Source of the DNA: Cycas panzhihuaensis
Lineage: Eukaryota > Plantae > Cycadophyta
Direction: 5' to 3'
Assembly (NCBI GenBank): GCA_023213395.1
Contig: CM041465.1
Location: forward strand, 126,363,741-126,427,740
DNA length: 64,000 nucleotides
Below are positions 3,733 through 33,143 of the stretch, piece after piece. How positions within the stretch are numbered: the first letter of the stretch is position 1; the number at the start of each line of letters is the position of its first letter. Below the pieces are notes generated by a model, which saw only the letters and a list, made by a program, of their open reading frames with translations, was not told where the DNA came from and did not search any database. Position numbers and translations under genes: made by a program.

Positions 3733-4228
3733 GATCACCTCTCTCATCTAATGGTTAAATCTAGGTTCAAAGAAAGTGATCTACCTTATTTGTAAAAGAA
3801 TAAGTACTTTGAGATATTATGTATCTTGATGTATTTTGTATATGCAAGAAGATAATTTATATCTTCTTGTTGTTTAGGAGATTAAAGTCAAATAATTATT
3901 GTTGAACTAATTTCTAGGTGTGATGTTGATGTACTCTAAAGTAAATAAATGGCAATTCATTATTTTGAATCAAATAAGAAAACCAATGACAAAAAGAGTT
4001 AAATTTAAGAATCGAAATGTTTACTAGGCGAATAAAGGCGTAGAAAATTGTTTTCTTTCATTGTGTTTGGGCGTTACTAATATTGACAACACAAGCGTAG
4101 ATGGCCTATCAGGAGCGAATGATTCCCAGGGATTACATCTACGTTCATTTTAGTTTGTAGAAATGGTGCTTCAAAGCTTCCTTAGCTGAAAGACGTTCCC
4201 TTGGGTCAAACTTCAACAAACCTAGAAG
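3733..4228 (-). pseudogene. Truncated kinase 3' fragment (last ~28 codons + ~410 bp of 3' flank)
   Basis: Aligns with 5933-6421, then switches to Copia RT sequence at '...gaag|atgggg'. Confidence 0.85.
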
Positions 4229-5932: not shown

Positions 5933-6337
5933 GATCACCTCTCTAATCTAATGATTAAATCTAGGTTCGAAAAAAGTGATCTGCGTTGTTTGTAAAAGAA
6001 TAAGGACCTTGTCATATTATGTATCTTGATTTATTTTGTATATGCAAGAAAATAATTTATATCTTTTTGTCGTTTAGGAGATTAGAGTCAAATAATTATT
6101 GTTCAACTAATTTCTAGGCGTGGCGTTGATGTACTCTAAAGGCAATTCATTATTTTGAATCAAATAAGAAAAATCATGACAAAAAACAATTAAATTTAAG
6201 AGACGAAATGTTTACCAGACGAATAAAGAGCGTAGAAGCCGTTTTCTTTCATTGCGTTTGGACGTCACTAATATTGACAACACAACGTAGACGACGCACT
6301 ATCAGGAGCGAATGATTCCCAGGGATTACATCTACGT

Positions 6338-7509
6338 TCATTTTAGTTTGAAGAAGTGGTGGTTCAAAGCTTCGTTAGCGGAAAGACGCTCCCTTGGGTC
6401 AAACTTCAACAAACCACGAAGCAAATCAATGAGGGCTTCTGATGAGGTATCCCCATTTTGATTGACAAGATTCCGCAGGCGAGGCAATCTCTGGACTAGT
6501 CGAACTCTGTCTCTGGATGCAGCCCCCCGTGGCCAGTTGAGTTCCCTACCATTTCTAATGTACTCCCTTCCACAATCAGCAGCCCATTTTATCATATGTT
6601 GAGGAATTGGTCCCAATACCCGTTGCATCATTGCAAGGTGTTCCAAATCATCATCGGTCTGAAAAGGGCATTTCCACAGAATAATTCCGCCAAAACGCAC
6701 CCAACACTCCACAAATCGATAGGATAACTCCATCCAACACCCATTACCACCTCAGGTGCTCGGTAACCTCTCGTGGTAACTACCTTGCGATGGTATTGGT
6801 TCTGGAATGTGGCATTACCAAAATCTATGAGTTTAATTGCACTCGACGAGGGAATGCACTTATAACGATTCTTACGATCCGAAGAATTCTTGTCATATTC
6901 CGAGGAGACGAGAAGAATGTTATCAGGCTTTAGATCAGTATGTGAGAGAGTGAGCTCATGAATGAATGCAACAGCCTCCAACAGCTGACGTGCGAATTCC
7001 CGAATCAGAACAACAGACAAGGGCCGGTGATTGTTTCTACGTAATAAATCGTATAAACTCGGTCCAAGCTTTTCACAAACAATGCACACATGGGCACCAA
7101 AATGAAACCAAGTCTTCAATTTCAGGCAGCCCCGGGATCCATTGGTATCAAACTCTGCTATCCTGCGAAGAATGTCAATTTCAGTCATAGCTGCAACACC
7201 ATATTGCCATTCACTGCGGATAACCTTGATGGCTACATGCTCTTGCTTTTCACCGTCCCAACAATCTAAAACTCTACCAAAAGTTCCTTCGCCCAGTTTG
7301 CTAATAATCCTGTACCGAGATGTTATGTTTTCTCCAACCTCAAACACGTAGTGCCCATCTTTGTTATCCGGTCGCCATGGATGGGACGCAACAGCATGTA
7401 CATGGTTAGATCTCATCTCATCACGCTCCTTTTTCTTCCCGTGATTGGACCGTGACTCTTTAATACGACGACTTGTGGAAGGTTGTTTATAATAAACTGC
7501 GCTCTCCAT
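6338..7509 (-). CDS. Intronless LAMMER/CLK-family (AFC-like) dual-specificity protein kinase, ~390 aa; one 1-bp frameshift at ~6662 (A4 versus A5 in copy 2)
   Basis: Motifs PWRPDNKDGHYVF, GEGTFG, VAIK, HTDLKPDN, LIDFG, YRAPEV, DLWSVG and EHLAMMQRVLG. The two ORF pieces span 1172 bp and join into 391 codons if one A is restored. Confidence 0.9.
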
Positions 7510-7960
7510 ACCAAAACCTCTTCCAAGAGATCAACCGAGCGATTATTTCAGCGTGTGTATCGAATTATTTTCGATCCTAGATACTTTGCAGAAATTATTG
7601 AACCGCACAATAACAGTACACACAAGTTAAAGCGCCTCCACACACAATCGAATTGTGATGTCTTACCGTACAGCTTCCTACTTACTATATATGGATTCAG
7701 GTATGCGTGCGGCCGACTTATAGCTGAGGCGGCCCACAACACACAGAGACACCATAGGCATGTCCTTATTCAGCACGTCTCTCTGCTCAGAACTCCTCCC
7801 CGTCCTCTTCCCTTAGGGAAGGATAGCATGGAGTAATTTTATTGGACGGCTATGCCCTTGCCAATACCTCTCGTCATCCCAAAAACTAGAACACTTTACA
7901 AAGAATCGCATCAAGGACACGACTAAGGAAACCGTCATAGCGCATGTGAAACCGAGTCAA
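7510..7960 (-). promoter_or_regulatory. Putative kinase promoter/5' UTR (CpG-retaining, TATA-like ATATATAG about 180 bp upstream of the ATG); duplicated at ~29129-29580
   Basis: CpG-rich compared with the flanking decayed repeats. TATA-like motif at about 7684-7692. Confidence 0.35.
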
Positions 7961-8379
7961 CTCATTATCTTCTAAAGACGCTTCATACCATTAATGCTCT
8001 CATTTACTTAGAATAACGGTTCATACTCCACCTTGCTCTGGAACCTTATCTTAAATCCTACCACCGTGTCTTCATTTCACAATTGTTGAAGGCACTTATT
8101 TCTAAAGGACATCCGATGTTGCCACTAGAATGTATCTATGATGATGGAAATGTAAGATAGAAGCCACAGCCAATAACGTGGTATCAAATGATAGCTTGCA
8201 TACTCAAAATTAAGGCTCTCTCAAACATTATTAATGGAAATTAGAAAAGACTTGAAAAGTGCGTTAACGACAAGAACTCAAGCACAAACAAACCATAATA
8301 AATACGAATAATGGAAAATAGAAAGAACTCAATCTATGGTTATTTGGAAATGCCATTTATGGATACAACGTTTGAGATG

Positions 8380-8800
8380 GGTTATGCTAGAAGGATTACA
8401 GTGGGGTTTATCAGAGATGATGGAAACATGATATGAACCGTCATGAACAACCTCAATTACTGCAAAAGTACCGTGCCAACAAGAATGAAATTTATCGATG
8501 CAAATTCATCATTAACTTTGTCAAAAAGAAAAATGAGTCCAATGGGGTAAAATAAAGAAAGAAAAACAGTTTGATCATATTTTAAATTAGGTTGCATTTT
8601 GATATCTTCTAGATTGTTTAAGTAACGCAGGCTATCTTCACCAACCTTTTCTAGCTTAATGAGCCAAGTCTCAAATGCTATGCAATTCAAAAGTTGGTTG
8701 CAAATATTTGAATAAAGGGAATGAATTTTACTTTTAATGGGAATTATAGATTCTAGACCATAAACTAGAGAAGATGTGACAAATCCATTAGCTATCATGA
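8380..8800 (-). pseudogene. Old Ty3/Gypsy integrase C-terminal remnant (second copy at ~30000-30399 is split by the Gypsy insertion)
   Basis: TSSLVYGLESIIPI resembles the Gypsy integrase motif TPFxLVYGxEAVIP. Otherwise heavily decayed. Confidence 0.45.
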
Positions 8801-9664
8801 CAATGGATCAATTGAGATATAAGGATGGATAAATTTAACAATGCTAATAATTTTTGTATTAAGTGAATGATAGTTTTCAAGAGTGATAATCAAGAGAAGG
8901 GTGATACGAGACAATGTGAAAGGTAAGGTAGATACACGTGTTATATTTGGCAATGGAGCTATAAATGTTGAATATATTGTCATATAAATATGAGATGAGA
9001 ATAATTGGTAGGGAAACAAGTTGGGGATGAGAAGTATATGGGCGGTGTAAGTGAACGCAATGAATGTGGGCACTTTAGAAATAGAGTCATGGAGTATTAA
9101 TTCAATGAGTATTAAGGGTTTTTCATAAATATGATGATCTCGATCATAGTAGTGATTGTCTAGATGATGGTAAAAGAAATAATGTTAGGAGGTTAACCAT
9201 AATCAAAGGTTATAAGAGAGTTAAATTCAAGAATGGTACGGACTTGTATATAATAATGGTTATTAAAATTGACATCTATAAAGACTAAACAAAATGACAA
9301 CTATTAGGTAATACAAGGTAATATGGTAGTCAGTAGCTAGGTGTGTGTAATGTTACTAGCAAGCGTAACATTATGGGAAGTAAAAGTGATAAGCATGATG
9401 CAATGGTGCTATTTTAAGGCATTTACTTAGATACATACAATTACCTCATAATTCTATGGGGTTGGTAGGGAGTTAATGAACGATTGCATTGTAAGATCTC
9501 CATCAACGTGACTTAAACAATTTGCATAAACTTTTCACTATTTATATACACACATAAGCAAGGAAGTTAATAGAGATTACCTAAGAGTTATCAAAGTACA
9601 AAAACCTTTGCATGGGTCAAGGTTTAGAAATTGTTAAGGAACTCCTTGCAAAGGATGTCTCTAG

Positions 9665-12600
9665 TGTTGAATACTTCAGAATCTAAGAAATCATGTGCTT
9701 TGATCAATATATTAAGTAAAATAATATAACTATGCAATAAAACGTGTGAAATAAATAAGCATAACTCAGATGGACAAAATACGGGTGGATTTGCCACCAC
9801 ATAGAGCTCTATTTGGGAGGATCTTCTACATTAATCATAATCCAATGTATAACACAATGGTGCGAGTCTTAATTTATAGTCAACTTGCCAATACTTGAAA
9901 GATGCAATAGGCTCACTAAGCAACAAATAAGGCGGATCTGACTAGTTTATATAATAACATTAAATTATAACAAAGGGTCGCCTTAATATTATACAATGTG
10001 CACAAATTATATGAAGTACAAGAAATGATGGGTGTTATTACATGGTTTTAACACCATCCCTTAATAGGAGCTTCATTTCTTACGTCTGAGGTCATGTCTA
10101 AACCGTTTAAACTTTGATTTACTAAGAGCTTTGGTGAAGATGTCCACAACCTGGTCCTCAGTTGGATGATAGACGAAATTAGCTTCTCCGTTCTAGACAT
10201 GTTCATGGATGAAGTGATGATGGATCTCAATGTATTCGGCTCTATCATGAAATCTGATTCCATCTACGATACACTTTGATTGTGTGTCGAGGATGATGGG
10301 TGCATGTCATTGAAGTCCAAGTTCAGTAAGAATGCTTTTAAGATAAATCAACTCAGTTGTATGATGGACAACTGCTTTATATTCTATTTTGATGGAGGAA
10401 ATAGAAACACTTGGCTGCTTATTATAGCTCCACGAGATTACAACTAAATTTACGTCAAAATAATAACCTGAAGTTGAGTCGTGAGTATCTTGGCAACTTG
10501 CCCAGTCAGCATCTATATGTCCTTTTAGTATAGGGGGATTAGATTAGTTATAGTTAGCATGGTGATGTGTGCCATGGATATATCTGAGAATCCTAGTATA
10601 GGCTTTCTAATGATATACTTTTGGTTATGACATGTACCTAGAATAGATCTCTACTACATATAAAATATCCATACGAGTGTGGGTGAAATAGATGAGGTTT
10701 CCAACTAATTGTCGGTACAAAGTGGGATCAAAAGGCTTTCCTTGTTTATCTAGGTTTGGGTTAGTTCCTTTCTCCATAGGAATTTATGTTGTTTTATATA
10801 TTGTCATCCTAAATTTTTCTAAAAGCTCATTGGCATACTTTGTTTGAGTCAGGAAGATGTGTCTTAGTTCTTGTCAAACATAATGTTCAAGGAAGTAGTG
10901 GAGTAACCTACGATCTGTCATCTCAAAGTTACCTCTCAATTATGATTGAAGCCAAGCAAGGCCATCTGTGTCATTGTCAATGATTGCAAGATCATTTACA
11001 TAGAGAACAACGATTGCGGTCAAATTATCTCTAGCCAGAATGTAGAGATCTAGGTCATAGGGTGAACAATTGAATCCGTGCTAGTTAAGGACATCATCAA
11101 TCTTTATACACCAGGTACATTGTGCTTGTTTCAGTCTATAGATGGATTTTTCGAGTCTACATACTGAGTATTCTTATCTTGGACTAGTATAGATGGGGTG
11201 TTGTTTGAAGAAAACCTATTCTTTAAGGTCTCTATTGAGGAAAGTACTCTTCACATCTATTTGCTAAATACGCCAATTAAATTAGATTGCTAAGGACATA
11301 ACCAAATGGAGTGTGATCACATTAGCTACCAGTGCAAAGGTCTTGTCATAATCAATCCCCTCTTATTATTTAAAACCACTTGCTATAAGGCGAGCTTTGC
11401 GAGTGTCATATTTTGTAAGGCCTTTTAGCAATTATGGGAGGAGGAACATCTATTAATAATTGTTATACCCATTAGGATTTAGTTGAATGCTAGTGGCTTC
11501 CACCTGAAGGTCATCAACTAAAATTAGAGGTAAAGTTATACTTTCTTGAGTTGTTGATGTAGATGCTACTGGAATCGATGAAGCAGCTGGAGTGTACGAG
11601 GAGGCTAGTATTGGTGGCTCCACAATTTGTCCAAGAGTCACTTAAGATGCATGAACTTCTTCTACTGCTATAATATAAGGTTGAGGTGGAGGTAGGTCCT
11701 ATGAATCTTCTATAAATATTATATCCCGTGTTGCGTAAACTTGGTTCCCAACCATGTCAAACACTTTATAGGCTTTCCAACCAAGTACATAATTAAGGAA
11801 GATGCATTTCAGACTCTTGTCATCAAGCTTGTGTTTGTTTTCCTTTGAAATATGTTTATATTCCATGCATCCAAAGATCTTCACGGGGGCTACCAATGGT
11901 TTCTGACATGACCAAACTTCTTCAAGAGTAATATTCCTAACTACAATTATGGGACTTATGTTGGTTAGATAAATAGTTATGGTTGTGGCATCAACCCAGG
12001 ATCTGGTGGTAAGATTTGCAGCACTGAGCATTGCTTTTCCTTTATTTATCAATGCCTAATTCATTCTTTTAACCACACCATTTGGTTGAGGTGTGTGGGG
12101 AGGTGAGAAGTGATGTTGGATGCCATGTTCCTTGCCCAAAATGTTGGACTGATTAGAAATATACTCGCCACCATTATCAGATCTAAGGAGCTTGATTATC
12201 ATTCTACTTTTCTTTTCTATGGCAGCTTTGAACTCTTTGAATTTATTTAGGGTTTTATACTTATTTCTCAGGAGATAAACCTACATTTTCCTTGAGAAGT
12301 CATCTATGAATGTGATGAAATGCCAGCTTTTATTGAGTGGTTAGACAGGTACCAACTTGAATTTCTGGGTGGACCATCTCTAACGGCGCTGAGGATCTCC
12401 ATGCGTTCTTAGAAGGAAAATTTTCTCATTAGTGCTTTTCTATTAGGCAAGCCTCACATATGTTGTTGTACCTCTTAATTTTATGTAAACCATGTACCAT
12501 TTGGAGCTTAAACATGAGGTCCAAGCTTTGCATGTTTAAATGACTTAGGCATTAATTCCATAGGTATACTTTGGAGCCATTTGAGATGATAATTTCCTTT

Positions 12601-14000
12601 TAATATGAGAATTCACCTGGTTCTTATATACAGGGGGACTCTTCATTAATGACTTCATTTACCTCATCAATTTGAGCTGTGTTGGGAATTGAACAAGCTT
12701 CATTTTATGGAGTAGTTGTAAGGGGGATACCACCCAACCTATATAGGCCACCATCTTCATATCTTATGGCCACAAGCTTGCACGTTGCATGATCTGCGAT
12801 TCTACTAATGCCCTAGACAAAGAGGACATCTAAATTCTATTTGTTTATTTCATTGATAGAGAGCAAGTTCATCTCCATTTCAGGTGCAAGGAATATATTA
12901 TTGATGTGGTGCCTCATATTGGAGTCCTTCAAAGCTATTGGAGCCCTACCAATTTTGGTCATTATCGTAAGCCAAATTATCCCCAAATGTGATAGTTTGA
13001 GTATCATTGGCGAGTCTCTTCTAACATTTTTCTAATCCGATCATATATCTCCTTGCACTGACTCGAAGCCATGCATCCTCATCAAGTTGTGCGAAAAATT
13101 TGTAAAAAATAGGTGATGGAAGGAGGAATCCTAATTGTGTACCACATTACTTCTGTATTATTTATTATTATGCTGGTTTCTTTAATTTTTGATAGTGAAT
13201 TACTGCTTATTTTGAGGTCTTTCTCCTTGGCGGTCTCGATTCCAATTATGTTGGTAGAATTGGCCTTGTGGTTGGAATGATGACCCTTCTTATTGTTGAA
13301 TAAGGCCTCTTTATTGGAAATATGGGCCTCCTTGTTACAAAATAAGACCTCGCTATTATGGAAACAGGGCTCTTTGTAGAAGGCACGATCCTCCTTAGTA
13401 ATATCCTTGTCTCTATTAAGAGTAACTAGGACCTCTTTATTGATATGAGGGTGGTCCTTATTAGTAGGTTAGGCCTAATCGTTGATAATAAGAGGTAGCT
13501 TATTAGAAGCGAGGCCCATATGATTGACTCAATTGATTTTACAAGAGTTGTGAATCAACTTGTCCTCACTTGCATTAACAGAAGTGTCTTTTTTTATCAT
13601 AGTAGAGGCAACTGACATCTGGTCTAACCTATTAATTCTTTTAAAGTTGTGCATATGGCTGGTATTGAGACTGGAGTGCGATGAGTTAGACGGGAGGAGG
13701 AGGTGTTAATTGGTTATTACTTCTTTTAGGTTGGTTGTTGATATGGCTCTTGGGATATGGTCAGAGAATCTAAGTGTTGAGTTAGATCTTGGTGTTGACT
13801 AAGTTGTTGAGTTGATCTATTGATAGTCTTACGCTTTTCTGAGTTATGAAATTTGTAAAGGTAGGAGCGGGGTTAGATATACATGTCGCCCCAAGTCAGT
13901 CAGTTGAGTATATTCTCCTCTTATAACAAGAGTTCCTCACAGGTTGTGAAGTCTATTTTGGAATAATTACCATTTAATTTGGAAACAAAGGAGTTATATT
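9665..14000 (-). mobile_element. Decayed Ty1/Copia element (candidate 3' LTR 9665-10053, PPT, RNase H, RT, integrase, protease/gag remnants; no 5' LTR seen)
   Basis: Minus-strand remnants: KLDDKSLKCIFLNY...KAYKVFD (post-integrase), a WLLESGAT-like protease motif in sister copies, and RNase H tail sequence. PPT AAGGGATGG abuts TGTTAA at 10053, and a matching terminus tgttga lies at 9665. The right boundary is approximate. Confidence 0.75.
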
Positions 14001-15588
14001 CTATAGGTAGGATGTCAATGATGCTAGAGATTAAATCATGGTTTGAAAGTGGTTCATTAAGGATTATAAGTTAGTTCCTAGTTATTTTGATTTTAATCAA
14101 GTGGTGTGCTGTGCCAGAAAATGTATACTTTTATCAAAACGTTATGAACTTAAAGAAGATAAGTCATGAAAATAAGATTAATTTTAGATTCACGTATTCA
14201 TTATAGGGTGTACCCTATGCTTGGCACAAATAATTATACCCAACTAAGACATGGGAGAATATTATGAAGTAATTTAAGGAGATATTGTAAAAGTTTTTAA
14301 GTAATGAGGTAGTGGAGTTATCTCTCAAGGAAATGAGATAAAGGCTAGTAGAATTACTTTTAATACGTATATGAAAAATAAATATTAAAGTTGTAAGTAT
14401 TATGAATGGAGAAAAAATCATGGATTATAATAAGAGAAACTATTTTATAAATGGGCTAAATTCTAAAGTAAGGGCCATAATGGTGATTCATTCCTTGAAA
14501 TGCTTCCATTTCACACATGAGTTGGTATTACACTTTGAGAAAGAGATGGGCATTCACTCACAAGATAAAATGTAATAATTTAGAAGCCAAAATATAAATA
14601 AACCTTGCTATTAAGAAACAAAAATAAAGGAGACCTCAAAAGTAGAAGCCTTTAAAAAGGAAGTCACAAGATTAAAGTTATAAAGAAAGAAACATCAGCT
14701 TACTAAGGAGAAGAAGAATAAAAAATTATAAGGGTATGATAGTAATTGAAGAAGTGGTGTCACATTTGTGATAATAATTCATATTCTAGTAAAAAATGTG
14801 ACCTAAATGAGAGGAATAATATGGTAAAAGAGTAAAGTACATGGTGTTATATTTATGATATGTATAACCATAATATGAATAAACACTATTTTAATATATG
14901 TAAAACAAACCAATACGGTACAAGTTATGGAAGAAGGAACAACTTAACCATGATGCAATATACTAATGACGCAGGAAGGCATGTGAAAAAATAATAATGC
15001 ATGAAGAGAGAGTAAAGGAAATGTACTAAACTAACTAAAATAATAGAGATAAAATTGATCTATCCTCATAGAAAATACCTATAGAGATCAAACATCACCT
15101 AATAAGAATTTATTAAAATCTAAGAGGTCCACTAGAGCATATATGCCTAAACTATTGAGAAAAGTATGTGCTTGGCCTATTGCAGATACCCTTTATAAAG
15201 AAGAATATCCTATCTAACCCAGACTCTTAAATATACCTAAAACACTAGACTCAATCTTAAAATATGAGAAGGGACTAACTAGAGTAAGAGGCCTAAAGGA
15301 GTTAAGACCACATGATCCATATGATCATTAGGTAGGTTCTTGGAAAATTATCAATAGCAGTGACTCATCTCACATAAGTTTGAGATAGGCTAACAGTACA
15401 TGCATTTAACTCCAACTAGCATCAAGCTCTAATAGGTAAAATAAAAAGAGGCCATTGCTCTCAATAAGATGCATAGAGTTCACTTTCGGTTGTTGAGGCC
15501 ACACATATAAATGCATAGTGAGGGTAGATGCCCACCATTAGGCCAATCAGAATATGAATCGTAAGACTCTTCTCACATAAGGCCAAAA

Positions 15589-16071
15589 GATCACCTCTCT
15601 CATCTAATGGTTAAATCTAGGTTCAAAGAAAGTGATCTACCTTATTTGTAAAAGAATAAGTACTTTGAGATATTATGTATCTTGATGTATTTTGTATATG
15701 CAAGAAGATAATTTATATCTTCTTGTTGTTTAGAGGAGTAAAGTCAAATAATTATTGTTGAACTAATTTCTAGGTGTGATGTTGATGTACTCTAAAGTAA
15801 ATAAATGGCAATTCATTATTTTGAATCAAATAAGAAAACCAATGACAAAAAAGAGTTAAATTTAAGATTCGAAATGTTTATTAGATGAATAAAGAGCGTA
15901 GAAGTTATTTTCTTTCATTGCATTTAGACGTTACTAATATTGACAACACAATGTAGATGATGCACTATAAGGAGATTACATCTGCATTCATTTTAGTTTG
16001 TAGAAATGGTGCTTCAAAGCTTCGTTAGCTGAAAGACATTCCCTTGGGTCAAACTTCAGTAAATCTCGAAG
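15589..16071 (-). pseudogene. Truncated kinase 3' fragment
   Basis: Aligns with 5933-6421; more diverged, with a small deletion near 15970. Confidence 0.85.
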
Positions 16072-18870
16072 ATGGGGTGTTGTTTGAAGAAAACCTCTTC
16101 TTTAAGGTCTCTATTGAGGAAAGTACCCTTCACATCCATTTGCTAAATATTTCGATTAAATTAGATTGCTAAGGACATAACCAAACGGAATGTGATCACA
16201 TTGGCTACCGGTGCAAAGGTCTTGTGATAATCAATCCCCTCTTGTTATTTAAAACCTCCCGCTATAAGGCGAGCTTTGCGAGTGTCATACTTTCTAAGGC
16301 CTTTTAACATTTATGGGAGGAGGAACATCCATTAATAATTGTTATACCCATTAGGATTTAGTTGAATGCTAGTGGCTTCCACCTGAAGTTCATAAACTAA
16401 AATTGGATGTAAAGTTATACTTTCTTGAGTTGTTGATGTAGATACTCTTTGGAATCGATGAAGGAGCTGGAGTGTAGGAGGAGGCTAGTTTTGGTGGCTC
16501 GACAATTTGTCCAAGAGTCACTTAAGATACAAAACCTACTTCTACTGCTATAATATAAGGTTGAGGTGGAGGTAGGTCCTATAAATCTTCTATAAATATT
16601 ATATCCAGTGTTACGTAAACTTGGTTACCAACTATGTCAAACACTTTATAGGCTTTACAACAAAGTACATAGCTAAGGAAGATGCATTTCAGGCTCTTGT
16701 CATCAAGCTTCTTTTTGTTTTCCTTTGAAATATATTTATATTCCATGCATCCAAAGATCTTCACGAGTACTACCGATGGTTTCTGACTTGACTAAACTTC
16801 TTCAAGAGTAATATTCCTAACTACAATTCTGGGACTTATGTTGGTTAGATAAGTAGTTATGGTTGTGGCATCAACCTAAGATCTGGTGGTAAGATTTGCA
16901 GGACTAACCATTCCTTTTCCTTTATTTATCAATCTCTAATTCATTCTTTTCACTACGATTTTGTTGAGTTGTGTGGGGAGATGGGAACTGATGTTGGATG
17001 CCATGTCCCTTGCCCAAAATGTTGAGCTGATTAGAAATATACTCACCACCATTATCAGATCTAAGGAGCTTGATTATCATTCTACTTTTCTTTTCTATGG
17101 CAGCTTTGAACTCTTTGAATTTATTTAGGGTTTTATACTTATTTCTTAGGAAATAGACCTACATTTTCCTTGAGATGTCATCTATGAATGTGATGAAATG
17201 CCAGTTTTTATTGAGTGGTTAGGCGGTATCAACAAGTAAATTTACGGGTGGACCATCTTTAGCATTTGAGGGATCTCCATGCGTTCTTAGAAGGAAAATT
17301 TTCTCGTTAGTACTTTTCTATTAGGCAAGCATGACATATGTTGTTGTACCTCTTAATTTTATGTAAGCAGGTATGCGCTTTGGAGCTTAAACGTGAGGTC
17401 CAAGCTTTGCATGTTTAAATGGCTTAGTCATTAAATCCATAGATATACTTTGGAGCTATTTAAGATGACAATTTCCTTTCAATATGAGAATTGACCTGGT
17501 TCTTATATACAAGGAGACTCTTCATTAATGACTTCATTTACCTTATCAGTTGGGTTGTGTTGGGAATTGAACAAGCTTTATTTTATAGAGTAGTTGTAAG
17601 GGGGATACCACCAAACCTATATAGGCCACCATCTTCATGTCTTTTGGCCACAGGTTTGCATGTTGCATGATCTGCGATTCTAGTAATGCCCTAGCTAAAG
17701 AGGACATCTAAATTCGGTTTATTTATTTCATTGATAGAGAGCAAGTTCATCTCCATTTCGGGTGCAAGGAATATATTATTGATGTGGTGCCTCGTATTGG
17801 AGTCCTTCAAAGCTATTGGAGCACTATCGATTTTGGTTATTATCGTAAGTCAAATTATCCCCAAATGTGAAAGTTTGAGTATGGATTGCGCGGGTCTCTT
17901 CTAACATTTTTTCTAATCCGATCATATATCTCGTTACAACTGTCTCAAGGAGCCATGCATCCTCATCAAGTTGTGAAGAAACAGCTGCAAAGAATAGGTT
18001 ATGGAAGGAGGAATCCTAATTGTCTACCACATTACTTCCCTATTATTTATTATTATGCTGGTTCCTTTAATTTTTGATAGTGAATTGCTGCTTATTTTGA
18101 GGTCTTTCTCCTTGGCGGTCTCAGATTCGAATTGTGTTGGTAGAATTAGCCTTGTGGTTGGAATGATGACCCTTCGTATTATTGAATAAGGCCTCTTTAT
18201 TAGAAATATCAGCCTCCTTGTTACAAAATAAGACCTCGCTATTATGGAAACAAGGCTCTCTGTAGAAGGCACGATCCTTCTTAGTAATATCCTTGTCTCT
18301 ATTAAGAGTAACTAAGACCTCCTTGTTGATATGAGGGTGGTTCTTATTAGTAGATTAGGCCTAATCGTTGATAATAAGAGGTAGCTTATTAGAAGCGAGG
18401 CCCATATGATTGGCTCAATTGATTTTACAAGAGCTGTAAATCAACTTGTCCTCACTTGCATTAACTAAGTGTCTTTTCTAATTATAGTAGAGGCAATTGA
18501 CATTTGGTCTCACCTATTAATTCTTTTAAAGTTGTGCATATGGATGGTATTGAGATTGCTGATGCCAATGAGTTAGACGGGAGGATGAGGTGTTAATTGG
18601 TTATTACTTCTCTTAGGTTGGATGTTGATATGGCTCTTGGGATGTGGTCAGAGAATCCAATTGTTGAGTTAGATCTTGGTGTTGACTAAGCTGTTGAGTT
18701 GATCTATTGATAGTCTTACGCTTTTATGAGTTATGGGCTGTAAAGGTAGGAGCGGGGTTTGATATACATGTCGCCCTAAGTCAGTTGAGTATATTCTCCT
18801 CTTATAACAAGAGTTCCTCACAGGTCGTGAAGTCTATTTTGGAATAATTACCATGTAATTCGGAAACAAA
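16072..18870 (-). mobile_element. Decayed Copia remnant (subunit copy)
   Basis: Homologous to 11192-14000. Confidence 0.7.
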
Positions 18871-20469
18871 GGAGTTATATTATATAGATAGGATGTCAGT
18901 GATGCTAGAGATTAAATCATGGTTTAAAAGTAGTTCATTAAGGATTATAAGTTAGTTCCTAGTTATTTTGACTTTAATCAAGTGGCGTGCAACACTGCCA
19001 AAAAAGGTATACCTTTATTAAAACTTTATGAACTTAAAGAAGATAAGTTATGAAAATAAGATTAATTTTAGATTCACGTATTTATTATAGGGTGTACCCT
19101 ATGCTTGGCACAAATAATTACACCCAACTAAGACATGGGAGAATATTATGAAGTAATTTAAGGAGATATTGTAAAAGTTTTTAAGTAATGAGGTAGTGGA
19201 GTTATCTCTCAAGGAAATGAGATAAAGGCTAATAGAATTACTATTAATACGTATATAAAAAATAAATATTAAAGTTGTAAGTATTATGAATGGAGAAAAA
19301 ATCATGGATTATAATAAGAGAAACTATTTTATAAATGGGCTAAATTCTAAAGTAAGGGCCACAATGGTGACTCATTCCTTGAAATGCTTCTATTTCACAC
19401 ATGAGTTGGTATGCAACCATAAACCTTATTATTTAGACCACGAGACAAAATGTAATAATTAATAAGCCAAAATATAAATAAACCTTGCTATTAAGTAACA
19501 AAAGTAAAGGAGACCTCAAAAGTAGAAGCCTTTAAAAAGGAAGTCATAAGGTTAAAGTTATAAAGAAAGAAACCTCAACTTACTAAGGAGAAGAAGAACA
19601 AAAAAATATAGGGGTATGAGCAGTAATTGAAGAAGTGGTGTCACATTTGTGATAATAATTCATATTACGGTAAAAATGTGACCTAAATGAGAGGAATAAT
19701 ATGGTAAAAAAGTAAAGTATATGGTGTTATATTTGTGATTTGGATAACCATAAAATGAATAAACACTATTTTAATATATGTAAAATAAACCAATACGGTA
19801 CAAGTTATGGAAGAAGGAACAACTGAACCATGATGCAATATACTAATGAAGCAGGAAGGCATGTGAAAAAGTAATAATGCATGAAGAGAGAGTAAAGGAA
19901 ATGTACTAAACTAACTAAAATAATAGAGATAAAATTAATCTATCCTCATAGAAAATACCTATAGAGATCAAACATCACGTAATAAGAAGGCTGTCAAAAT
20001 CTAAGAGGCCCACTAGAGCATATATGCCCAAACTATTGAGAAAAGTATGTGCTTGGCCTATTGTAGATACCCTTTATAAAGAAGAATGTCCTATCCTAAC
20101 CCAGACTCTTAAATATACCTAAAACACTAGACTCAATCTTAAAATATGAGAAGGGACTAACTAGAGCAAGAGGCCTAAAGGAGTTAAGACCATAGGATCC
20201 ATATGATCATTAGGTAGGTTCTTGGAAAATTATCAATAGTAGTGACTCATCTCACATAAGTTTGAGATAGGCTAATAGTACATGCATTTAACTCCAACTA
20301 GCATCAAGCTCTAATAGGTAAAATAAAAAGAGGCCCTTTGCTCTCAATAAGATGCATAGAGTTCACTTTCGGTTGTTGAGGCCACACATATAAGCATAGT
20401 GAGGGTAGATGCCCACCATTAGGCCAATCAGAATATGAATCGTAAGACTCTTCTCACATAAGGTCAAAA

Positions 20470-20969
20470 GATCACCTCTCTCATCTAATGGTTAAATCTA
20501 GGTTCAAAGAAAGTGATCTACCTTATTTGTAAAAGAATAAGTACTTTGAGATATTATGTATCTTGATGTATTTTGTATATGCAAGAAGATAATTTATATC
20601 TTCTTGTTGTTTAGGAGATTAAAGTCAAATAATTATTGTTGAACTAATTTCTAGGTGTGATGTTGATGTACTCTAAAGTAAATAAATAGGAATTCATTAT
20701 TTTGAATCAAATAAGAAAACCAATGACAAAAAAGAGTTAAATTTAAGAATCGAAATGTTTACTAGGCGAATAAAGGGCGTAGAAACATTGTTTTCTTTCA
20801 TTGTGTTTGGGCGTTACTAATATTGACAACACAATGTAGATGATGCACTATCGAAGCGAATGATTCCCAGGGATTACATCTACCTTCATTTTAGTTTGTA
20901 GAAATGGTGCTTCAAAGCTTCCTTAGTAGAAAGACGTTCCCTTGGGTCAAACTTCAACAAACCTCGAAG
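20470..20969 (-). pseudogene. Truncated kinase 3' fragment
   Basis: Aligns with 5933-6421; same fusion junction. Confidence 0.85.
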
Positions 20970-23790
20970 ATGGGGTGTTGTTTGAAGAAAACGTCTTCTT
21001 TAAGGTCTCTGTTGAGGAAAGTACCCTTCACATCTATTTGCTAAATATGTCGATTAAATTAGATTGCTAAGGACATAACCAAATGGAATGTGATCACATT
21101 GGCTATCGGTGCAAAGGTCTTATCATAATCAATCCCCTCTTGTTATTTAAAAGCTCTTGTTATAAGGCGAGCTTTGCGAGTGTCATACTTTGTAAGGCCT
21201 TTTAGCAGTTATGGGAGGAGGAACATCCATTAATAATTGTTATACCCATTAGGATTTAGTTGAATGCTAGTGGCTTCCACCTGAAGTTCATCAACTAAAA
21301 TTGGAGGTAAAGTTATACTTTCTTGAGTTGTTGATGTAGATGCTCTTTGGAATCGATGAAGGAGAATTTGTAGGAGGAGACTAGTTTTGATGGCTCCACA
21401 ATTTGTCCAAGAGTCACTTAAGATACATAAACTACTTCTACTACTATAATATAAGGTTGAGGTGAAGGTAGGTCCTATGAATCTTCTATAAATATTATAT
21501 CTCGTGTTGCGTAAACTTGGTTACCAACTATGTCAAACACTTTATAGGCTTTACAACCAAGTACATAGCTAAAGAAGATGCATTTTAGGCTCTTGTCATC
21601 AAGCTTCTTTTCATTTTCCTTTGAAATATATTTATATTCCATGCATCCAAAGAATTGCAGTACTATCGATGGTTTCGACTGACCAAACTTCTTCAAGAGT
21701 AATATTCCTAAGTGCAATTCTAGGACTTATGTTGGTTAGGTAAGTAGTTATGGTTGTGGCATCAACCCAAGATCTAGTGGTAAGATTTGCAACACTAAGC
21801 ATGGCTTCTCCTTTATTTATCAATGTCTAATTCATTCTTTTGACTACACCATTTTGTTGAGGTGTGTGAGGAGTTGGGAGGCGATGTTGGATGCCATGTT
21901 CTCTTGCCCAAAATGTTGAACTGATTAGAACTATACTCTAAGCCACCATTATCAGATTTAAGGAGCTTGATTATCATTCTACTTTTCTTTTTTATGGCAG
22001 CTTTGAACTCTTTGAATTTATTTAGGGTTTTATACTTTTTTCTCAGGAGATAGACCTACATTTTCCTTGAGAAGTCATCTATGAATGTGATGAAATGCCA
22101 GCTTTTATTGAGTGGTTAGGCAGTCTGCCGATCTGCGAATTTCTGGGTGGACCGTCTCTAACGGCGTTGAGGATCTCCATGCGTTCTTAGAAGGAAAAAT
22201 TTCTCTTTAGTGCTTTTCTATTAGGCAAGCCTCACATATGTTGTTGTACCTCTTAATTTTATGTAAACCATGTACCATTTGGAGCTTAAACATGAGGTCC
22301 AAGCTTTGCATGTTTAAATGACTTAGGCATTAATTCCATAGGTGTACTTTGGAGCTATTTGAGATGATAATTTCCTTTCAATATGAGAATTCACCTGGTT
22401 CTTATATCTGAGACTCTTCATTAATGACTTCATTTACCTTATCAATTTGAGCTATGTTGGGAATTGAACAAGCTTCATTTTATGGAGTAGTTGTAAGGGG
22501 GATACCACCCAACCTATATAGGCCACCATCTTCATATCTTATGGCCACAAGCTTGCACGTTGCATGATCTGCGATTCTACTAATGTCCTAGACAAAGAGG
22601 ACATCTAAATTCTGTTTGTTTATTTCATTGATATAGGGCAAGTTCATCTCCATTTCAGGTGCAAGGAATATATTATTGATGTGGTGCCTCATATTGGAGT
22701 CCTTCAAAGCTATTGGAGCCCTACCAATTTTGGTATTATCGTAAGTCAAATTATCCCCAAATGTGATAGTTTAAGTATCGACTGGGCGGGTCTCTTCTAA
22801 TATTTTTTCTAATCCGATCATATATCTCGTTGCACCTGACTCAAGGAGCCATGCATCCTCATCAAGTTGTGAAGAAAGAGCTGCAAAGAATAGGTGATGG
22901 AAGGAGGAATCCTAATTGTCTACCACATTACTTTCCTATTATTTATTATTATCTTTGGTTTCTTTAATTTTTGATAGTGAATTGTAGCTTATTTTGAGGT
23001 CTTTCTCCTTGAGCAGGTCTCTGATTCCAATTGTGTTGGTAGAATTGGCCTTGTGGTTGGAATGATGACCCTTCTTATTGTTGAATAAGGCCTCTTCATT
23101 GGAAATATAGGCCTCCTTGTTACAAAATAAGACCTCGCTATTATGGAAACGGGGCTCTTTGTAGAAGGCACGATCCTCCTTAGTAATATCCTTGTCTCTA
23201 TTAAGAGTAACTAGGACCTCCTTGTTGATATGAGGGTGGTCCTTATTAGTAGATTAGGCCTAATGGTTGATAATAAGAGGTAGCTTATTAGAAGTGAGGC
23301 CTATATGATTGGCTCAATTGATTTTACAAGAGTTGTGAATCAACTTGTCCTCACTTGCATTAACAGAAGTGCCTTTTTTTATCATAGTAGAGGCAACTGA
23401 CATATGGTCTAACCTATTAATTCTTTTAAAGTTGTGCATATGGCTGGTATTGAGGCTAGCGATGCCCGATGAGTTAGGCAGGAGGAGGAGGAGGTGTTAA
23501 TTGGTTATTACTTCTCTTAGGTTGGTTGTTGATATGGCTCTTGGGATATGGTCAGAGAATCCAAGTGTTGAGTTAGATCTTGGTGTTGACTAAGCTGTTG
23601 AGTTGATCTATTAATAGTCTTACGCTTTTATGAGTTATGAAATTTGTAAAGGTAGGAGCGGGGTTAGATATACATGTCGCCCCAAGTCAGTCAGTTGAGT
23701 ATATTCTCCTCTTATAACAAGAGTTCCTCACAGGTCGTGAAGTCTATTTTGGAATAATTACCATTTAATTTGGAAACAAAGGAGTTATAT
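20970..23790 (-). mobile_element. Decayed Copia remnant (subunit copy)
   Basis: Homologous to 11192-14000. Protease-like AWLLESGATRYM at about 22820-22855. Confidence 0.7.
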
Positions 23791-25345
23791 TCTATAGAGA
23801 TTAAATCATGGTTTGAAAGTGGCTCGTTAAGGATTATAGGTTAGTTGGGAGTTATTTTGAGTTTAATGAAGTGGTGTGCTGTTGCCAGCGTATACCTTTA
23901 TCAAAACGTTATGAACTTAAAGAAGATAAGTCATGAAAATAAGATTAATTTTAGATTCACCTATTCATTATAGGGTGTACCCTATGCTTGGCACAAATAA
24001 TTATACCCAACTAAGACATGGGAGAATATTATGAAGTAATTTAAGGAGATATTGTAAAAGTTTTTAAGTAATGAGGTAGTGGAGTTATCTCTCAAGGAAA
24101 TGAGATAAAGGCTAGTAGAATTACTTTTAATACGTATATGAAAAATAAATATTAAAGTTGTAAGTATTATGAATGGAGAAAAAATCATGGATTATAAGAA
24201 GAGAAACTATTTTACAAATGGGCTAAATTCCATTTCACACATGAGTTGGTATTACACTTTGAGAAAGAGATGGGCATTTAAAAGGGCGGCCATAAACCTT
24301 ATTATTTAGATCACAAGATAAAATGTAATAATTAAGAAGCCAAAATATAAATAAACCTTGCTATTAAGTAACAAAAATAAAGGAGACCTCAAAAGTAGAA
24401 GCCTTTAAAAAGGAAGTCACAAGATTAAAGTTATAAAGAAAGAAACCTAAACTTACTAAGGAGAAGAAGAACAAAAAAATATAGGGGTAACGAACTGTAA
24501 TTAAAGAAGTGGTGTCACATTTGTGATAATAATTCATATTCTAGTAAAAAATGTGACCTAAATGAGAGGAATAATATGGTAAAAAAGTAAAGTACATGGT
24601 GTTATATTTGTGATATGGATAACCATAATATGAATAAACACTATTTTAATATATATAAAACAAACCAATACGGTACAAGTTATGGAAGAAGGAACGACTT
24701 AACCATGATGCAATATACTAATGGCGCAGGAAGGCATGTGAAAAAATAATAATGCATGAAGAGAGAGTAAAGGAAATGTACTAAACTAACTAAAATAATA
24801 GAGATAAAATTGATCTATCCTCATAGAAAATACCTATAGAGATCAAACATCACCTAATAAGAAGGCTGTCAAAATCTAAGAGGTCCACTAGAGCATATAT
24901 GCCTAAACTATTGAGAAAAGTATGTGCTTGGCCTATTGCAGATACCCTTTATAAAGGAGAATATCCTATCCTAACCCAGACTCTTAAATATACCTAAAAC
25001 ACTAGACTCAATCTTAAAATATGAGAAGGGACTAACTAGAGTAAGAGGCCTAAAGGAGTTAAGACCACAGGATCCACATGATCATTAGGTAGGTTCTTGG
25101 AAAATTATCAATTGCAGTGACTCATCTCACATAAGTTTGAGATAGGCTAATAATAGTACATGCATTTAACTCCAACTGGCATCAAGCTCTAATAGGTAAA
25201 ATAAAAGAGGCCCTTTGCTCTCAATAAGATGCATAGAGTTCACTTTCGGTTGTTGAGGCCGCACATATAAGCATAGTGGCGTAGATGCCGACGATTAGGC
25301 CATTAAGAATATGAATCGTAAGACTCTTCTCACATAAGGCCAAAA

Positions 25346-25841
25346 GATCACCTCTCTCATCTAATGGTTAAATCTAGGTTCAAAGAAAGTGATCTACCTT
25401 ATTTGTAAAAGAATAAGTACTTTGAGATATTATGTATCTTGATGTATTTTGTATATGCAAGAAGATAATTTATATCTTCTTGTTGTTTAGGAAGATTAAA
25501 GTCAAATAATTATTGTTGAACTAATTTCTAGGTGTGATGTTGATGTACTCTAAAGTAAATAAATGGCAATTCATTATTTTGAATCAAATAAGAAAACCAA
25601 TGACAAAAAGAGTTAAATTTAAGAATCGAAATGTTTACTAGGCGAATAAAAGGCGTAGAAGTTGTTTTCTTTCATTGTGTTTGGGCGTTACTAATATTGA
25701 CAACACAAGCGTAGATGGCCTTTTCTCGAGGCGAATGATTCCGGGGATTACATCTCGTTCATTTTAGTTTGTAGAAATGGTGCTTCAAAGCTTCCTTAGG
25801 TGAAGACGTTCCCTTGGGTCAAACTTCAACAAACCTAGAAG
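25346..25841 (-). pseudogene. Truncated kinase 3' fragment
   Basis: Aligns with 5933-6421; same fusion junction. Confidence 0.85.
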
Positions 25842-27551
25842 ATGGGGTGTTGTTTGAAGAAAACCTCTTCTTTAAGGTCTCTATTGAGGAAAGTACCCTT
25901 CACATCCATTTGTTAAATATCTTGGATTAAATTAGATTGCTAAGGACATAACCAAATGGAATGTGATCACATTGGCTACCGGTGCAAAGGTCTTGTCATA
26001 ATCAATCCCCTCTTGTTATTTAAAACCTCTTGCTATAAGGCGAGCTTTGCGAGTGTCATACTTTGTAAGGCCTTTTAGTAGTTATGGGAGGAGGAACATC
26101 CATTAATAATTATTATACCCATTAGGATGTAGTTGAATGCTAGTGGCTTCCACCTGAAGTTCATCAACTAAAATTGGAGCTAAAGTTATACTTTCTTGAG
26201 TTGTTGATGTAGATGCTACTGGAATCGATGAAGGAGCTGGAGTGTAGGAGGAGGTTAGTTTTGGTGGCTCCACAATTTGTCCAAGAATCACTTAACATAC
26301 ACAAACTACTTCTACTGCTGTAATATAAGGTTGAGGTGAAGGTAGGTCCTATGAATCTTCTATAAATATTATATCCTGTGTTGCGTAAACTTGGTTACCA
26401 ACTATGTCAAACACTTTATAGGCTTTACAACCAAGTACATAGCTAAAGAAGATGCATTTCAGTCTCTTGTCATCAAGCTTCTTTTTGTTTTCCTTTGAAA
26501 TATATTTATATTCCATGCATCCAAAGATCTGCACGAGTACTATCGATGGTTTCTGACCTGACCAAACTTCTTCAAGAGTAATATTCCTGACTGCAATTCT
26601 AGGACTTATGTTGGTTAGATAAGTAGTTATGGTTGTGGCATCAACCCAAGATCTGGTGGTCAGATTTGCAACACTAAGCACGGCTTTTCCTTTATTTATC
26701 AATGTCTAATTCATTCTTTTGACTACACCATTTTGTTGAGGTGTGTGGGGAGCTGGGAATTGATGTTGGATGCCATGTTCCTTGCCCAAAATGTTGGACT
26801 GATTAGAAATATACTCAAAGCCACCATTATCAGATCTAAGGGGCTTGATTATCATTCTACTTTCCTTTTCTATGGCAGCTTTGAACTGTTTGAATTTATT
26901 TGGGGTTTTATACTCATTTCTCAGGAAATAGACCTACATTTTCCTTGAGAAGTCATCTATGAATGTGATGAAATGCGAGTTCGTATTGAGTGGTTAGACA
27001 GGTACCAACCTGTAAATTTCTGGATGGACCATCTCTAACGGCGCTGGGGATCTCCATGTGTTCTTAGAAGGAAAATTTTCTCGTTAGTGCTTTTCTGTTA
27101 GGCAAGCCCCACATATGTTGTTGTACCTCTTAATTTTATGTAAACCATGTACCATTTGGAGCTTAAATATGAGGTCCAAGATTTGCATGTTTTAAATGAC
27201 TCAGGCATTAATTCCATAGGTATACTTTGTGGAGCTATCTGAGATGACATTTTCCTTTCAATATGAGAATTCACCCGGTTCTTATATACAAGGGGATTCT
27301 TCATTAACGACTTCATTTACCTTATCAATTTGAGCTATGTTGGGCATTGAACAAGCTTCATTTTATGGAGTAGTTGTAATGGGGATACCACCCGACCTAT
27401 ATAGGCCACCATCTTCATGTCTTGTGGCCAGAGGTTTGCATGTTGCATGATCTGCGATTCTACTAATGCCCTAGCCAAAGAGGATATCTAAATGATGTTT
27501 GTTTATTTCCTTGATAGAGCAAGTTCGTCTCCATTTCGGGTGCAAGGAAAT
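25842..27551 (-). mobile_element. Decayed Copia remnant, truncated
   Basis: Copy of 4229-5932. Confidence 0.7.
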
Positions 27552-27956
27552 GATCACCTCTCTAATCTAATGATTAAATCTAGGTTCGAAAAAAGTGATC
27601 TGCGTTGTTTGTAAAAGAATAAGGACCTTGACATATTATGTATCTTGATTTATTTTGTATATGCAAGAAAATAATTTATATCCTTTTGTCGTTTAGGAGA
27701 TTAGAGTCAAATAATTATTGTTCAACTAATTTCTAGGCGTGGCGTTGATGTACTCTAAAGGCAATTCATTATTTTGAATCAAATAAGAAAAATCATGACA
27801 AAAAACAATTAAATTTAAGAGACGAAATGTTTACCAGACGAATAAAGAGCGTAGAAGCCGTTTTCTTTCATTGCGTTTGGACGTCACTAATATTGACAAC
27901 ACAACGTAGACGACGCACTATCAGGAGCGAATGATTCCCAGGGATTACATCTACGT

Positions 27957-29128
27957 TCATTTTAGTTTGAAGAAGTGGTGGTTCAAAGCTTCGTTAGCGG
28001 AAAGACGCTCCCTTGGGTCAAACTTCAACAAACCACGAAGCAAATCAATGAGGGCTTCTGATGAGAGATCCCCATTTTGATTGACAAGATTCCGCAGGCG
28101 AGGCAATCTCTGGACTAGTCGAACTCTGTCTCTGGATGCAGCCCCCCGTGGCCAGTTGAGTTCCCTACCATTTCTAATGTACTCCCTTCCACAATCAGCA
28201 GCCCATTTTATCATATGTTGAGGAATTGGTCCCAATACCCGTTGCATCATTGCAAGGTGTTCCAAATCATCATCGGTCTGAAAAAGGGCATTTCCACAGA
28301 ATAATTCCGCCAAAACGCACCCAACACTCCACAAATCGATAGGATAACTCCATCCAACACCCATTACCACCTCAGGTGCTCGGTAACCTCTCGTGGTAAC
28401 TACCTTGCGATGGTATTGGTTCTGGAATGTGGCATTACCAAAATCTATGAGTTTAATTGCACTCGACGAGGGAATGCACTTATAACGATTCTTACGATCC
28501 GAAGAATTCTTGTCATATTCCGAGGAGACGAGAAGAATGTTATCAGGCTTTAGATCAGTATGTGAGAGAGTGAGCTCATGAATGAATGCAACAGCCTCCA
28601 ACAGCTGACGTGCGAATTCCCGAATCAGAACAACAGACAAGGGCCGGTGATTGTTTCTACGTAATAAATCGTATAAACTCGGTCCAAGCTTTTCACAAAC
28701 AATGCACACATGGGCACCAAAATGAAACCAAGTCTTCAATTTCAGGCAGCCTCGGGATCCATTGGTATCAAACTCTGCTATCCTGCGAAGAATGTCAATT
28801 TCAGTCATAGCTGCAACACCATATTGCCATTCACTGCGGATAACCTTGATGGCTACATGCTCTTGCTTTTCACCGTCCCAACAATCTAAAACTCTACCAA
28901 AAGTTCCTTCGCCCGGTTGCTAATAATCCTGTACCGAGATGTTATGTTTTCTCCAACCTCAAACACGTAGTGCCCATCTTTGTTATCCGGTCGCCATGGA
29001 TGGGACGCAACAGCATGTACATGGTTAGATCTCATCTCATCACGCTCCTTTTTCTTCCCGTGATTGGACCGTGACTCTTTAATACGACGACTTGTGGAAG
29101 GTTGTTTATAATAAACTGCGCTCTCCAT
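27957..29128 (-). CDS. Second, near-identical copy of the intronless LAMMER/CLK kinase; one 1-bp frameshift at ~28915
   Basis: Same motifs. This copy reads 'gcccggttgc' where copy 1 reads 'gcccagtttgc'. Restoring the base gives the same 390-aa ORF. Confidence 0.9.
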
Positions 29129-30399
29129 ACCAAAACCTCTTCCAAGAGATCAACCGAGCGATTATTTCAGCGTGTGTATCGAATTATTTTCGATCCTAGA
29201 TACTTTGCAGAAATTATTGAACCGCACAATAACAGTACACACAAGTTAAAGCGCCTCCACACACAATCGAATTGTGATGTCTTACCGTACAACTTCCTAC
29301 TTACTATATATGGATTCAGGTATGCGTGCGGCCGACTTATAGCTGAGGCGGCCCACAACACACAGAGACACCATAGGCATGTCCTTATTCAGCACGTCTC
29401 TCTGCTCAGAACTCCTCCCCGTCCTCTTCCCTTAGGGAAGGATAGCATGGAGTAATTTTATTGGACGGCTATGCCCTTGCCAATACCTCTCGTCATCCCA
29501 AAAACTAGAACACTTTACAAAGAATCGCATCAAGGACACGACTAAGGAAACCGTCATAGCGCATGTGAAACCGAGTCAACTCATTATCTTCTAAAGACGC
29601 TTCATACCATTAATGCTCTCATTTACTTAGAATAACGGTTCATACTCCACCTTGCTCTGGAACCTTATCTTAAATCCTACCACCGTGTCTTCATTTCACA
29701 ATTGTTGAAGGCACTTATTTCTAAAGGACATCCGATGTTGCCACTAGAATGTATCTATGATGATGGAAATGTAAGATAGAAGCCACAGCCAATAACGTGG
29801 TATCAAATGATAGCTTGCATACTCAAAATTAAGGCTCTCTTAAACATTATTAATGGAAATTAGAAAAGACTTGAAAAGTGCGTTAACGACAAGAACTCAA
29901 GCACAAACAAACCATAATAAATACGAATAATGGAAAATAGAAAGAACTCAATCTATGGTTATTTGGAAATGCCATTTATGGATACAACGTTTGAGATGGG
30001 TTATGCTAGAAGGATTACAGTGGGGTTTATCAGAGATGATGGAAACATGATATGAACCGTCATGAACAACCTCAATTACTGCAAAAGTACCGTGCCAACA
30101 AGAATGAAATTTATCGATGCAAATTCATCATTAACTTTGTCAAAAAGAAAAATGAGTCCAATGGGGTAAAATAAAGAAAGAAAAACAGTTTGATCATATT
30201 TTAAATTAGGTTGCATTTTGATATCTTCTAGATTGTTTAAGTCACGCAGGCTATCTTCACCAACCTTTTCTAGCTTAATGAGCCAAGTCTCAAATGCTAT
30301 GCAATTCAAAAGTTGGTTGCAAATATCTGAATAAAGGGAATGAATTTTACTTTTAATGGGAATTATAGATTCTAGACCATAAACTAGAGAAGATGTGAC

Positions 30400-32962: not shown

Positions 32963-32963
32963 C

Positions 32964-32981
32964 TGGCGACCATACTGGGGA
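32964..32981 (+). promoter_or_regulatory. Primer-binding site, tRNA-Arg-like
   Basis: TGGCGACCATACTGGGGA lies 1 bp after the LTR and resembles the Tat/Ogre PBS TGGCGACTCCACTGGGGA. Confidence 0.7.
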
Positions 32982-33143
32982 CTGCCAGTAAGGGAGCTAA
33001 ATCTGCTTCCCCTTCTTGTTGGTGTTCTTGCCTCTAGGTAGGTTCGCATTTCGTGTTTTCGGTTGGGCAACCCCCAACGCATTTGCATTACTTTTTCTTC
33101 TTTCCCTGCTCGCTTCTTCTAACGCCGCTCGTAAGGGCGTTGC

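Follow-up and report, generated by a model that had tools for sequence, protein, structure and literature searches.

LAMMER kinases set splicing by temperature, bear a signature—EHLAMMERILG in helix alphaG together with a packing Trp (PMC2667211)—and form a small family in Arabidopsis, which has three AFC genes (PMC545797). Amplification of protein genes to as many as hundreds of copies is described as very rare in plants (PMC10821269); in Drosophila, two amplified Y-linked families reach 36–146 copies, one of them being the kinase Lhk with two subfamilies (PMC8794474). Here we describe a 64-kb stretch of the cycad Cycas panzhihuaensis (contig CM041465.1, positions 126,363,741–126,427,740; hereafter the window) that carries two near-identical copies of a LAMMER kinase gene within a tandem repeat. 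Comparison with public sequencing runs shows that the array is real, conserved, and ampliconic, and that the LAMMER kinase it carries is divergent. The reading we favor, and hold to be probable, is that this is an old intronless gene of a gymnosperm-only clade, that its product would be an active SR-protein kinase whose dose is kept by selection, and that this kinase is predicted to work without the temperature switch.

Self-comparison of the window revealed a 21.6-kb period made up of one 6.96-kb kinase unit and three ~4.9-kb monomers (coordinates in Table 1), with positions 1–8780 matching 21612–30399, 8776–19075 matching 43985–54361, and 19070–23575 matching 59502–64000. Corresponding segments of the two periods differ by 0.3–1.9% substitutions, whereas monomers differ from one another by 4.4–6.2%: the periods are more alike than the monomers within them, which makes this a higher-order tandem repeat and the monomer older than the period. 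Every monomer is composed of a decayed Ty1/copia stretch (gag, protease, integrase, and the start of reverse transcriptase, RT) that ends where RT begins and is followed by a ~500-bp piece comprising the last 27 codons of the kinase and its 3′ flank. Pfam recovered gag, protease, pre-integrase, integrase, and SH3 pieces in 5 of the 11 fragments scanned, SH3 alone scoring above the curated cut-off. Kilobase monomers are known from potato centromeres as well. One part of the monomer, at 14200–15584 (~1.4 kb in each), is AT-rich and has no match in the kinase or in the copia 3′ end at 8781–10050.

The first-pass annotation of this DNA had described two near-identical, full-length, intronless kinase copies 21,619 bp apart inside a 21.6-kb higher-order tandem repeat. 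Both the spacing and the repeat are borne out, the two copies differing by four substitutions and two one-base indels over 1171 columns; what that description lacked is that neither copy is open as assembled, a separate 1-bp deletion breaking the frame in each. Its additional claim that both window ends lie inside further repeat copies is sensitive to the choice of period boundary: the window contains just two periods and ~2 kb more (62044–64000 differs from 1–1956 by 1.6% substitutions), and the case for many more copies comes from the depth of sequencing runs rather than from the window.

Public runs were screened for the gene plus 0.8 kb of upstream DNA, and the contigs of eight runs were compared with the window. 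Gene and upstream DNA were present in 20 of the 24 listed runs, spanning 10 organism labels plus air samples and 11 studies; X24 (label F) and X21–X23 contained next to none of these sequence words and were not used. No RNA dataset was among those listed, which has no bearing on whether the gene is expressed. Contigs from seven of the eight runs compared (X1, X2, X3, X10, X14, X17, and X20; seven species labels) have an open 390-codon frame: they carry the base that is absent from copy A, agree with copy A where copy B breaks, and show no stop or frameshift in the kinase gene among the variants listed. X6 has a contig hole at the break, and in X2 a single 2975-bp contig, running from 6299 to 9200, spans the gene together with an empty gypsy insertion site. 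A pair of pseudogenes as the general state of the array was rejected on the strength of these open contigs.

Contig depth was high in all eight runs compared. In X6 the flank contigs reached a depth of 599–717 against 4–13 for stray diverged contigs, a ratio of 45–167 that gives an order of magnitude, contig depth being no proper copy number; the gene is likely carried in tens to a few hundred copies. The depth of the monomer-type fragment relative to the gene was 2.8–3.1 in X1, the closest run, as in the window with its three monomers per gene, and 0.9–2.1 in the other labels, so the gene unit is shared among labels and the monomer count is not. Frequent one-base indels between repeats in the assembly, of the kind a noisy consensus produces, could suggest that a single-copy gene was duplicated by misassembly; such an artefact is scarcely credible: depth is high in 8 of 8 runs, X1 shows the 3:1 ratio found within the period, and the transposon insertions are specific to one copy and flanked by target duplications. 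Low-depth contigs (2–5) in X6 and X3, at 6451–6747 and 7175–7325, are intronless fragments ~86–88% identical to the gene, apparently older relatives present there at low copy number.

Between species, the coding region has changed ~4-fold less than the upstream flank. X3 departs from the window at 6 of 1172 coding positions and up to 34 of 1691 upstream positions (p = 0.0005), X2 at 5 of 1172 and 31 of 1730 (p = 0.0009). A word-share estimate of flank divergence pointed in the same direction as these direct counts, overshot ~2-fold for labels B and C, and was not relied on. Among contigs of the seven labels, at least 14 coding sites vary, 7 of them silent and 7 not (two window-only sites, 6448 and 7443, excluded and the silent site 6664 included; labels A–C may have further sites beyond those listed, and per-contig counts bound X1, and X3 up to 7357). 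Against an expected silent share of 0.22–0.28, this gives an omega (dN/dS) of ~0.3 over the whole frame (p = 0.02–0.07); within the kinase domain, 6 of 10 sites among the variants listed are silent (omega ~0.2, p = 0.01–0.03). These counts indicate that the coding region is under purifying selection. The locus combines many near-identical tandem copies (two copies 0.3% apart in the window, and the rough depth estimate from X6) with open frames under selection, and in both respects it is ampliconic. Amplification in the manner of an ampliconic gene was the first-pass proposal, and the observations named there as capable of overturning it included single-copy depth, betraying an assembly artefact, and absent expression with dN/dS near 1. 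Depth proved high in every run compared, and omega is not near 1, either among labels (~0.3) or against the nearest relative compared at the DNA level (0.22–0.24, below).

The same counts bear on whether the kinase is a passenger: a copia-derived satellite may have swept up a neighboring gene of which one or a few copies matter, or which is decaying. Plant satellites are commonly retrotransposon-derived (PMC7004042). At this locus decayed copia or other non-gene DNA makes up ~87% of each period, there are more truncated 3′ fragments than genes, the array has taken transposon insertions, and both assembled copies are frameshifted. Yet the majority sequence of the array is open in seven labels, differences in its coding part are four times fewer than in the adjoining flank, and no other part of the period is as uniform between its two copies as the kinase block (0.35% vs. 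~1.1%, p = 6e-5), so that we regard the passenger account as unlikely.

The predicted protein is a Pfam Pkinase whose best Protein Data Bank matches are CLK4, CLK2, CLK1, and CLK3 (E ~1e-80 to 1e-75) and whose best match among 1809 proteins is Ginkgo Gb_36852, at 68% identity. In a set of 5.8 billion proteins none above 68% identity to the window kinase was found, and the family thus appears unannotated in that set. A search of shorter proteins returned no close fragment (best 75% identity over 18% of the query), a search of representatives nothing closer than 57% at full length, and a scan of Joint Genome Institute (JGI) metagenomes, using the window kinase, 75 pattern matches with no relative among them. 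A 36-row tree (35 rows chosen from 120 listed of the 1809 matches) groups the window protein with Gb_36852, the cluster P0002 (which includes a Picea sitchensis member), the conifer-like cluster P0003, and Welwitschia P0009 at support 100/100, on a long branch (1.18 vs. a median of 0.14) that makes the placement less certain. P0001, P0002, P0003, and P0009 form a LAMMER clade seen here only in gymnosperms (Ginkgo, Pinaceae, and Welwitschia), apart from AFC1/2 and AFC3; no cupressophyte member was found among the best 120 of the 1809 matches. Against L001, a contig coding for a Pinaceae-type member of cluster P0003 and the nearest clade DNA compared (74% DNA identity), dS is 0.97 and dN 0.21–0.23 (omega 0.22–0.24), which indicates an ancient split and net purifying selection.

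The runs also contain traces of a sister gene. Contigs in X1, X10, X14, X17, and X20 match the kinase gene over 7331–7391 and then diverge; four of the five rejoin it at the start-codon context (7497–7521), and the X1 contig (8356 bp, depth 40) further matches 7567–7600 and 8595–8754, with pieces of the 1.25-kb upstream block common to gene and sister. Translated in frame, the loose X10 end gives DDDKGGSHGL, which resembles the DD.KG stretch that the Ginkgo and Pinaceae proteins have and the window gene lacks. Sister contig depth relative to the gene is 3.0x in X1 and 0.2–0.5 elsewhere. These sequences point to a second multi-copy LAMMER paralogue, known from contig pieces.

Among the loci of relatives, 21 of 26 are split into 3–9 coding pieces and five are continuous, possibly being transcripts; the window gene is continuous but for its frameshifts. 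By this comparison the gene has lost introns that are seen in its relatives, at some time and most simply by retroposition. Neither the poly(A) tail nor the target duplication of a retrogene was found; the 408 bp 3′ of copy A contain no run of six or more A, a loss expected at such an age. A young retrocopy was rejected on the dS of 0.97. The earlier suggestion of an intronless retrocopy with a new promoter consequently survives in part: the intron loss holds when set beside genomic relatives, and the promoter picked up here by a young copy does not, given the dS, the missing poly(A), and a sister paralogue with which the gene has the start context and parts of the upstream block in common. 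Within the window, 7666–7722 contains TATA-like words and two splice-donor-like words ~160–210 bp 5′ of the start, and an intron in the 5′ untranslated region (UTR) is possible.

The glycine loop, catalytic Lys, alphaC Glu, HTD, DFG, APE, and LAMMER helix are all present by alignment, helix alphaG reading EHLAMMQRVLG and being accompanied by NWP with its packing Trp. The beta-hairpin and MAPK-like insertions are likewise present, the hairpin ~5 residues shorter than that of Ginkgo, and near-invariant columns are kept far more often than others (116/136 vs. 102/181, p = 2e-8). On these motifs of a CMGC kinase domain we identify the gene as encoding a LAMMER/CLK kinase. Many otherwise invariant residues have changed, and the repeated 3′ fragments within copia DNA could feed silencing, as if the locus supplied a decoy protein or small RNAs that tune the ordinary AFC genes. 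A noncatalytic role of this kind is nonetheless very unlikely: no catalytic motif has been lost, RNA targeting would be poor at the 74% DNA identity shared with the Pinaceae-type gene, and selection acts at the amino-acid level.

Among the changes, the activation loop reads TTRG for STRH, PDN replaces PEN, and TDDD replaces THEN; STRH, PEN, and TH(E/D)N occur in 120 of the best 120 of the 1809 homologues. The thermosensor position is Gly (codon 248, 6766–6768 in copy A, with no contig difference listed there) instead of the P+1-loop His of thermosensitive CLK/AFC kinases (CLK1 H344). Replacing H344 with Gln abolishes the temperature sensitivity of CLK1, and a survey of 86 species records only five independent changes (PMC12795684); in plants the His-to-Gln substitution has a strong effect on AFC2 and AFC3 and none of this strength on AFC1 (bioRxiv 10.1101/2024.06.21.600040). 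The His of THEN corresponds to CLK1 His382, a modelled contact to the substrate P-2 residue (PMC2667211). An altered temperature response and substrate choice are predicted.

Altered substrate-facing residues, a very long protein branch (1.18 vs. 0.14), and two related families whose depth ratio ranges from 0.2 to 3.0 across labels are also what genetic conflict could leave behind. The kinase array and the sister paralogue might act as driver and suppressor in haploid or reproductive cells, or might be sex-chromosomal, like the Drosophila Lhk Y families whose copy numbers are given above. Recent change between species has been slow, with purifying rather than positive selection, and runs from studies P4 and P6 carry the gene at a similar share; we think a conflict-driven amplicon rather unlikely. 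As a conjecture of low probability, the locus might be a plant counterpart of the animal ampliconic splicing kinases: two LAMMER families co-amplified to tens or hundreds of copies throughout a gymnosperm genus, with the switch lost and the substrate groove rebuilt, a role in the haploid gametophyte or pollen, and a copy ratio that records a contest between drive and suppressor.

The reading we favor—an old LAMMER kinase, tandemly arrayed and active—would account for the locus as follows. A gene lying beside a decayed copia element would have been caught in a tandem duplication, broken at one point within the copia RT and at another within the kinase's last 27 codons, as the monomer junction suggests, giving rise to the 4.9-kb monomer. 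Unequal exchange would then multiply gene and monomers together, leaving ~1–3 monomers per gene depending on the species, and would homogenize the array while selection purged harmful coding changes. The kinase is predicted to phosphorylate splicing factors in some restricted tissue, with a substrate preference that may be shifted by the His-to-Asp change and extra acidic residues ahead of the LAMMER helix, and to have no His-dependent shut-off when warm.

Several observations weigh against this account. Taken across the entire frame, the silent excess is marginal (p up to 0.07); it comes from 14 sites in related species. Contigs represent the majority form, with rare broken copies dropped; depth is an improper gauge of copy number; and both window copies are frameshifted, with sequencing error not provable. 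The window gene has changed at 20 of the 136 near-invariant positions, and four clade relatives at one apiece. The His-to-Gln mutant of AFC1 shows little effect on temperature response (10.1101/2024.06.21.600040), and loss of the His thus need not abolish the switch. Activation-segment changes after duplication can, moreover, precede pseudogenization (PMC12795684).

Table 1. Features of the 64-kb window (positions counted from its first letter)
Feature	Position	Strand	Remarks
Copy A of the intronless LAMMER/AFC kinase (open frame of 390 codons)	6338..7509	-	base absent near 6661-6665 in assembly
LAMMER/AFC kinase copy B, intronless	27957..29128	-	base absent near 28918 in assembly
DNA upstream of copy A, putatively promoter plus 5′ UTR	7510..8780	-	TATA-like words at 7722 and 7691
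Upstream block of copy B	29129..30399	-	0.3% from the block of copy A
3′ flank of copy A	5930..6337	-	runs directly into the middle of decayed copia; copy B counterpart 27549-27956
Kinase unit, 6.96 kb: copia protease-integrase part, kinase block, copia RT/RNaseH end	4228..11190	.	second copy 25841-30399 + 43985-46410
Three 4.9-kb monomers	11191..25840 (11191-16069, 16070-20967, 20968-25840)	.	self-comparison, Pfam
Monomers of period 2	46411..64000 (46411-51351; 51352-54361 + 59503-61398; from 61399)	.	62044-64000 matches first 2 kb of window
Kinase 3′ fragment (last ~27 codons and 3′ flank)	15585..16071	-	9-12% diverged from gene
Further kinase 3′ fragments	3729-4228, 20466-20969, 25342-25841, 50852-51353, 60898-61400		
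Non-autonomous Ty3/gypsy element, 13.6 kb	30400..43984	+	long terminal repeats (LTRs) 30400-32962 and 41481-43984; 5-bp target duplication
Ty1/copia element, 5.1 kb	54362..59502	+	identical 220-bp LTRs; 5-bp target duplication; frames broken in assembly

Two transposons interrupt period 2 and are later than it. The gypsy element contains gag, an antisense PMD-domain frame (38593–39477), and an RNase H frame adjoining the 3′ LTR, between LTRs of 2.5 kb; RT and integrase were not found in it, and we take its layout to be Tat-like. Its LTRs are 2.1% apart, vs. 0.35% for the flanking kinase blocks, a difference that would possibly fit homogenization after insertion and that is confounded by indel-rich assembly noise and faster LTR mutation. 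The copia element, with its identical LTRs, is a very recent insertion, and its broken frames may therefore show the indel error rate of the assembly. Across the window, Rfam gave 0 matches and Tandem Repeats Finder (TRF) three short repeats, none relevant; a search with gag likewise returned nothing.

A literature search, with most subscription journals outside its scope, found no report of an amplified or intronless gymnosperm LAMMER kinase among the papers listed; supplements of gymnosperm genome papers may list the family. In giant genomes, arrays of this kind are collapsed or masked as repetitive DNA. If the favored reading is true, a kinase kept at what are likely ~50–170 copies through a species radiation, with its sensor His replaced, would be a natural test of both residue and dose.

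Set against the plant AFC1–3 and human CLK1–4 kinases, the window gene shares the Pkinase domain, HTD loop, beta-hairpin insertion, and LAMMER helix; it differs in being multi-copy and intronless where plant genomes have 1–4 AFC genes (PMC12795684), in lying on a branch eight times the median, and in its TTRG, PDN, and TDDD. The gymnosperm clade (Gb_36852, P0002, P0003, and P0009) is closer, with the 100/100 grouping, 63–68% identity, and short shared stretches, whereas its members keep STRH and THEN and each have 1 of 136 near-invariant positions changed to the window gene's 20.

The closest parallel as an amplified system is Lhk of the Drosophila simulans clade, which is tied to sex-chromosome conflict: it too is an SR-protein kinase with tens to hundreds of copies, two subfamilies, and open frames, and shows concerted evolution and a burst of protein change followed by purifying selection in one subfamily (PMC8794474). 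Lhk, however, is an SRPK, animal, Y-linked, and testis-expressed; the gene described here is CLK-type, from a plant, intronless, and embedded in a copia-derived higher-order repeat. Spruce beta-glu-1, Mimulus RLG1a, and Amaranthus EPSPS are likewise protein genes with up to hundreds of copies (PMC10821269), but they encode enzymes whose copy number varies within species, whereas this is a regulatory kinase amplified, as part of a defined repeat unit, under seven or more species labels. With retrotransposon-derived satellites the array shares a monomer built from LTR-retrotransposon DNA (PMC7004042); unlike them, it carries an intact host gene under selection, part of which is built into the monomer. 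Here a repeat of retrotransposon origin acts as the carrier of a selected host gene.

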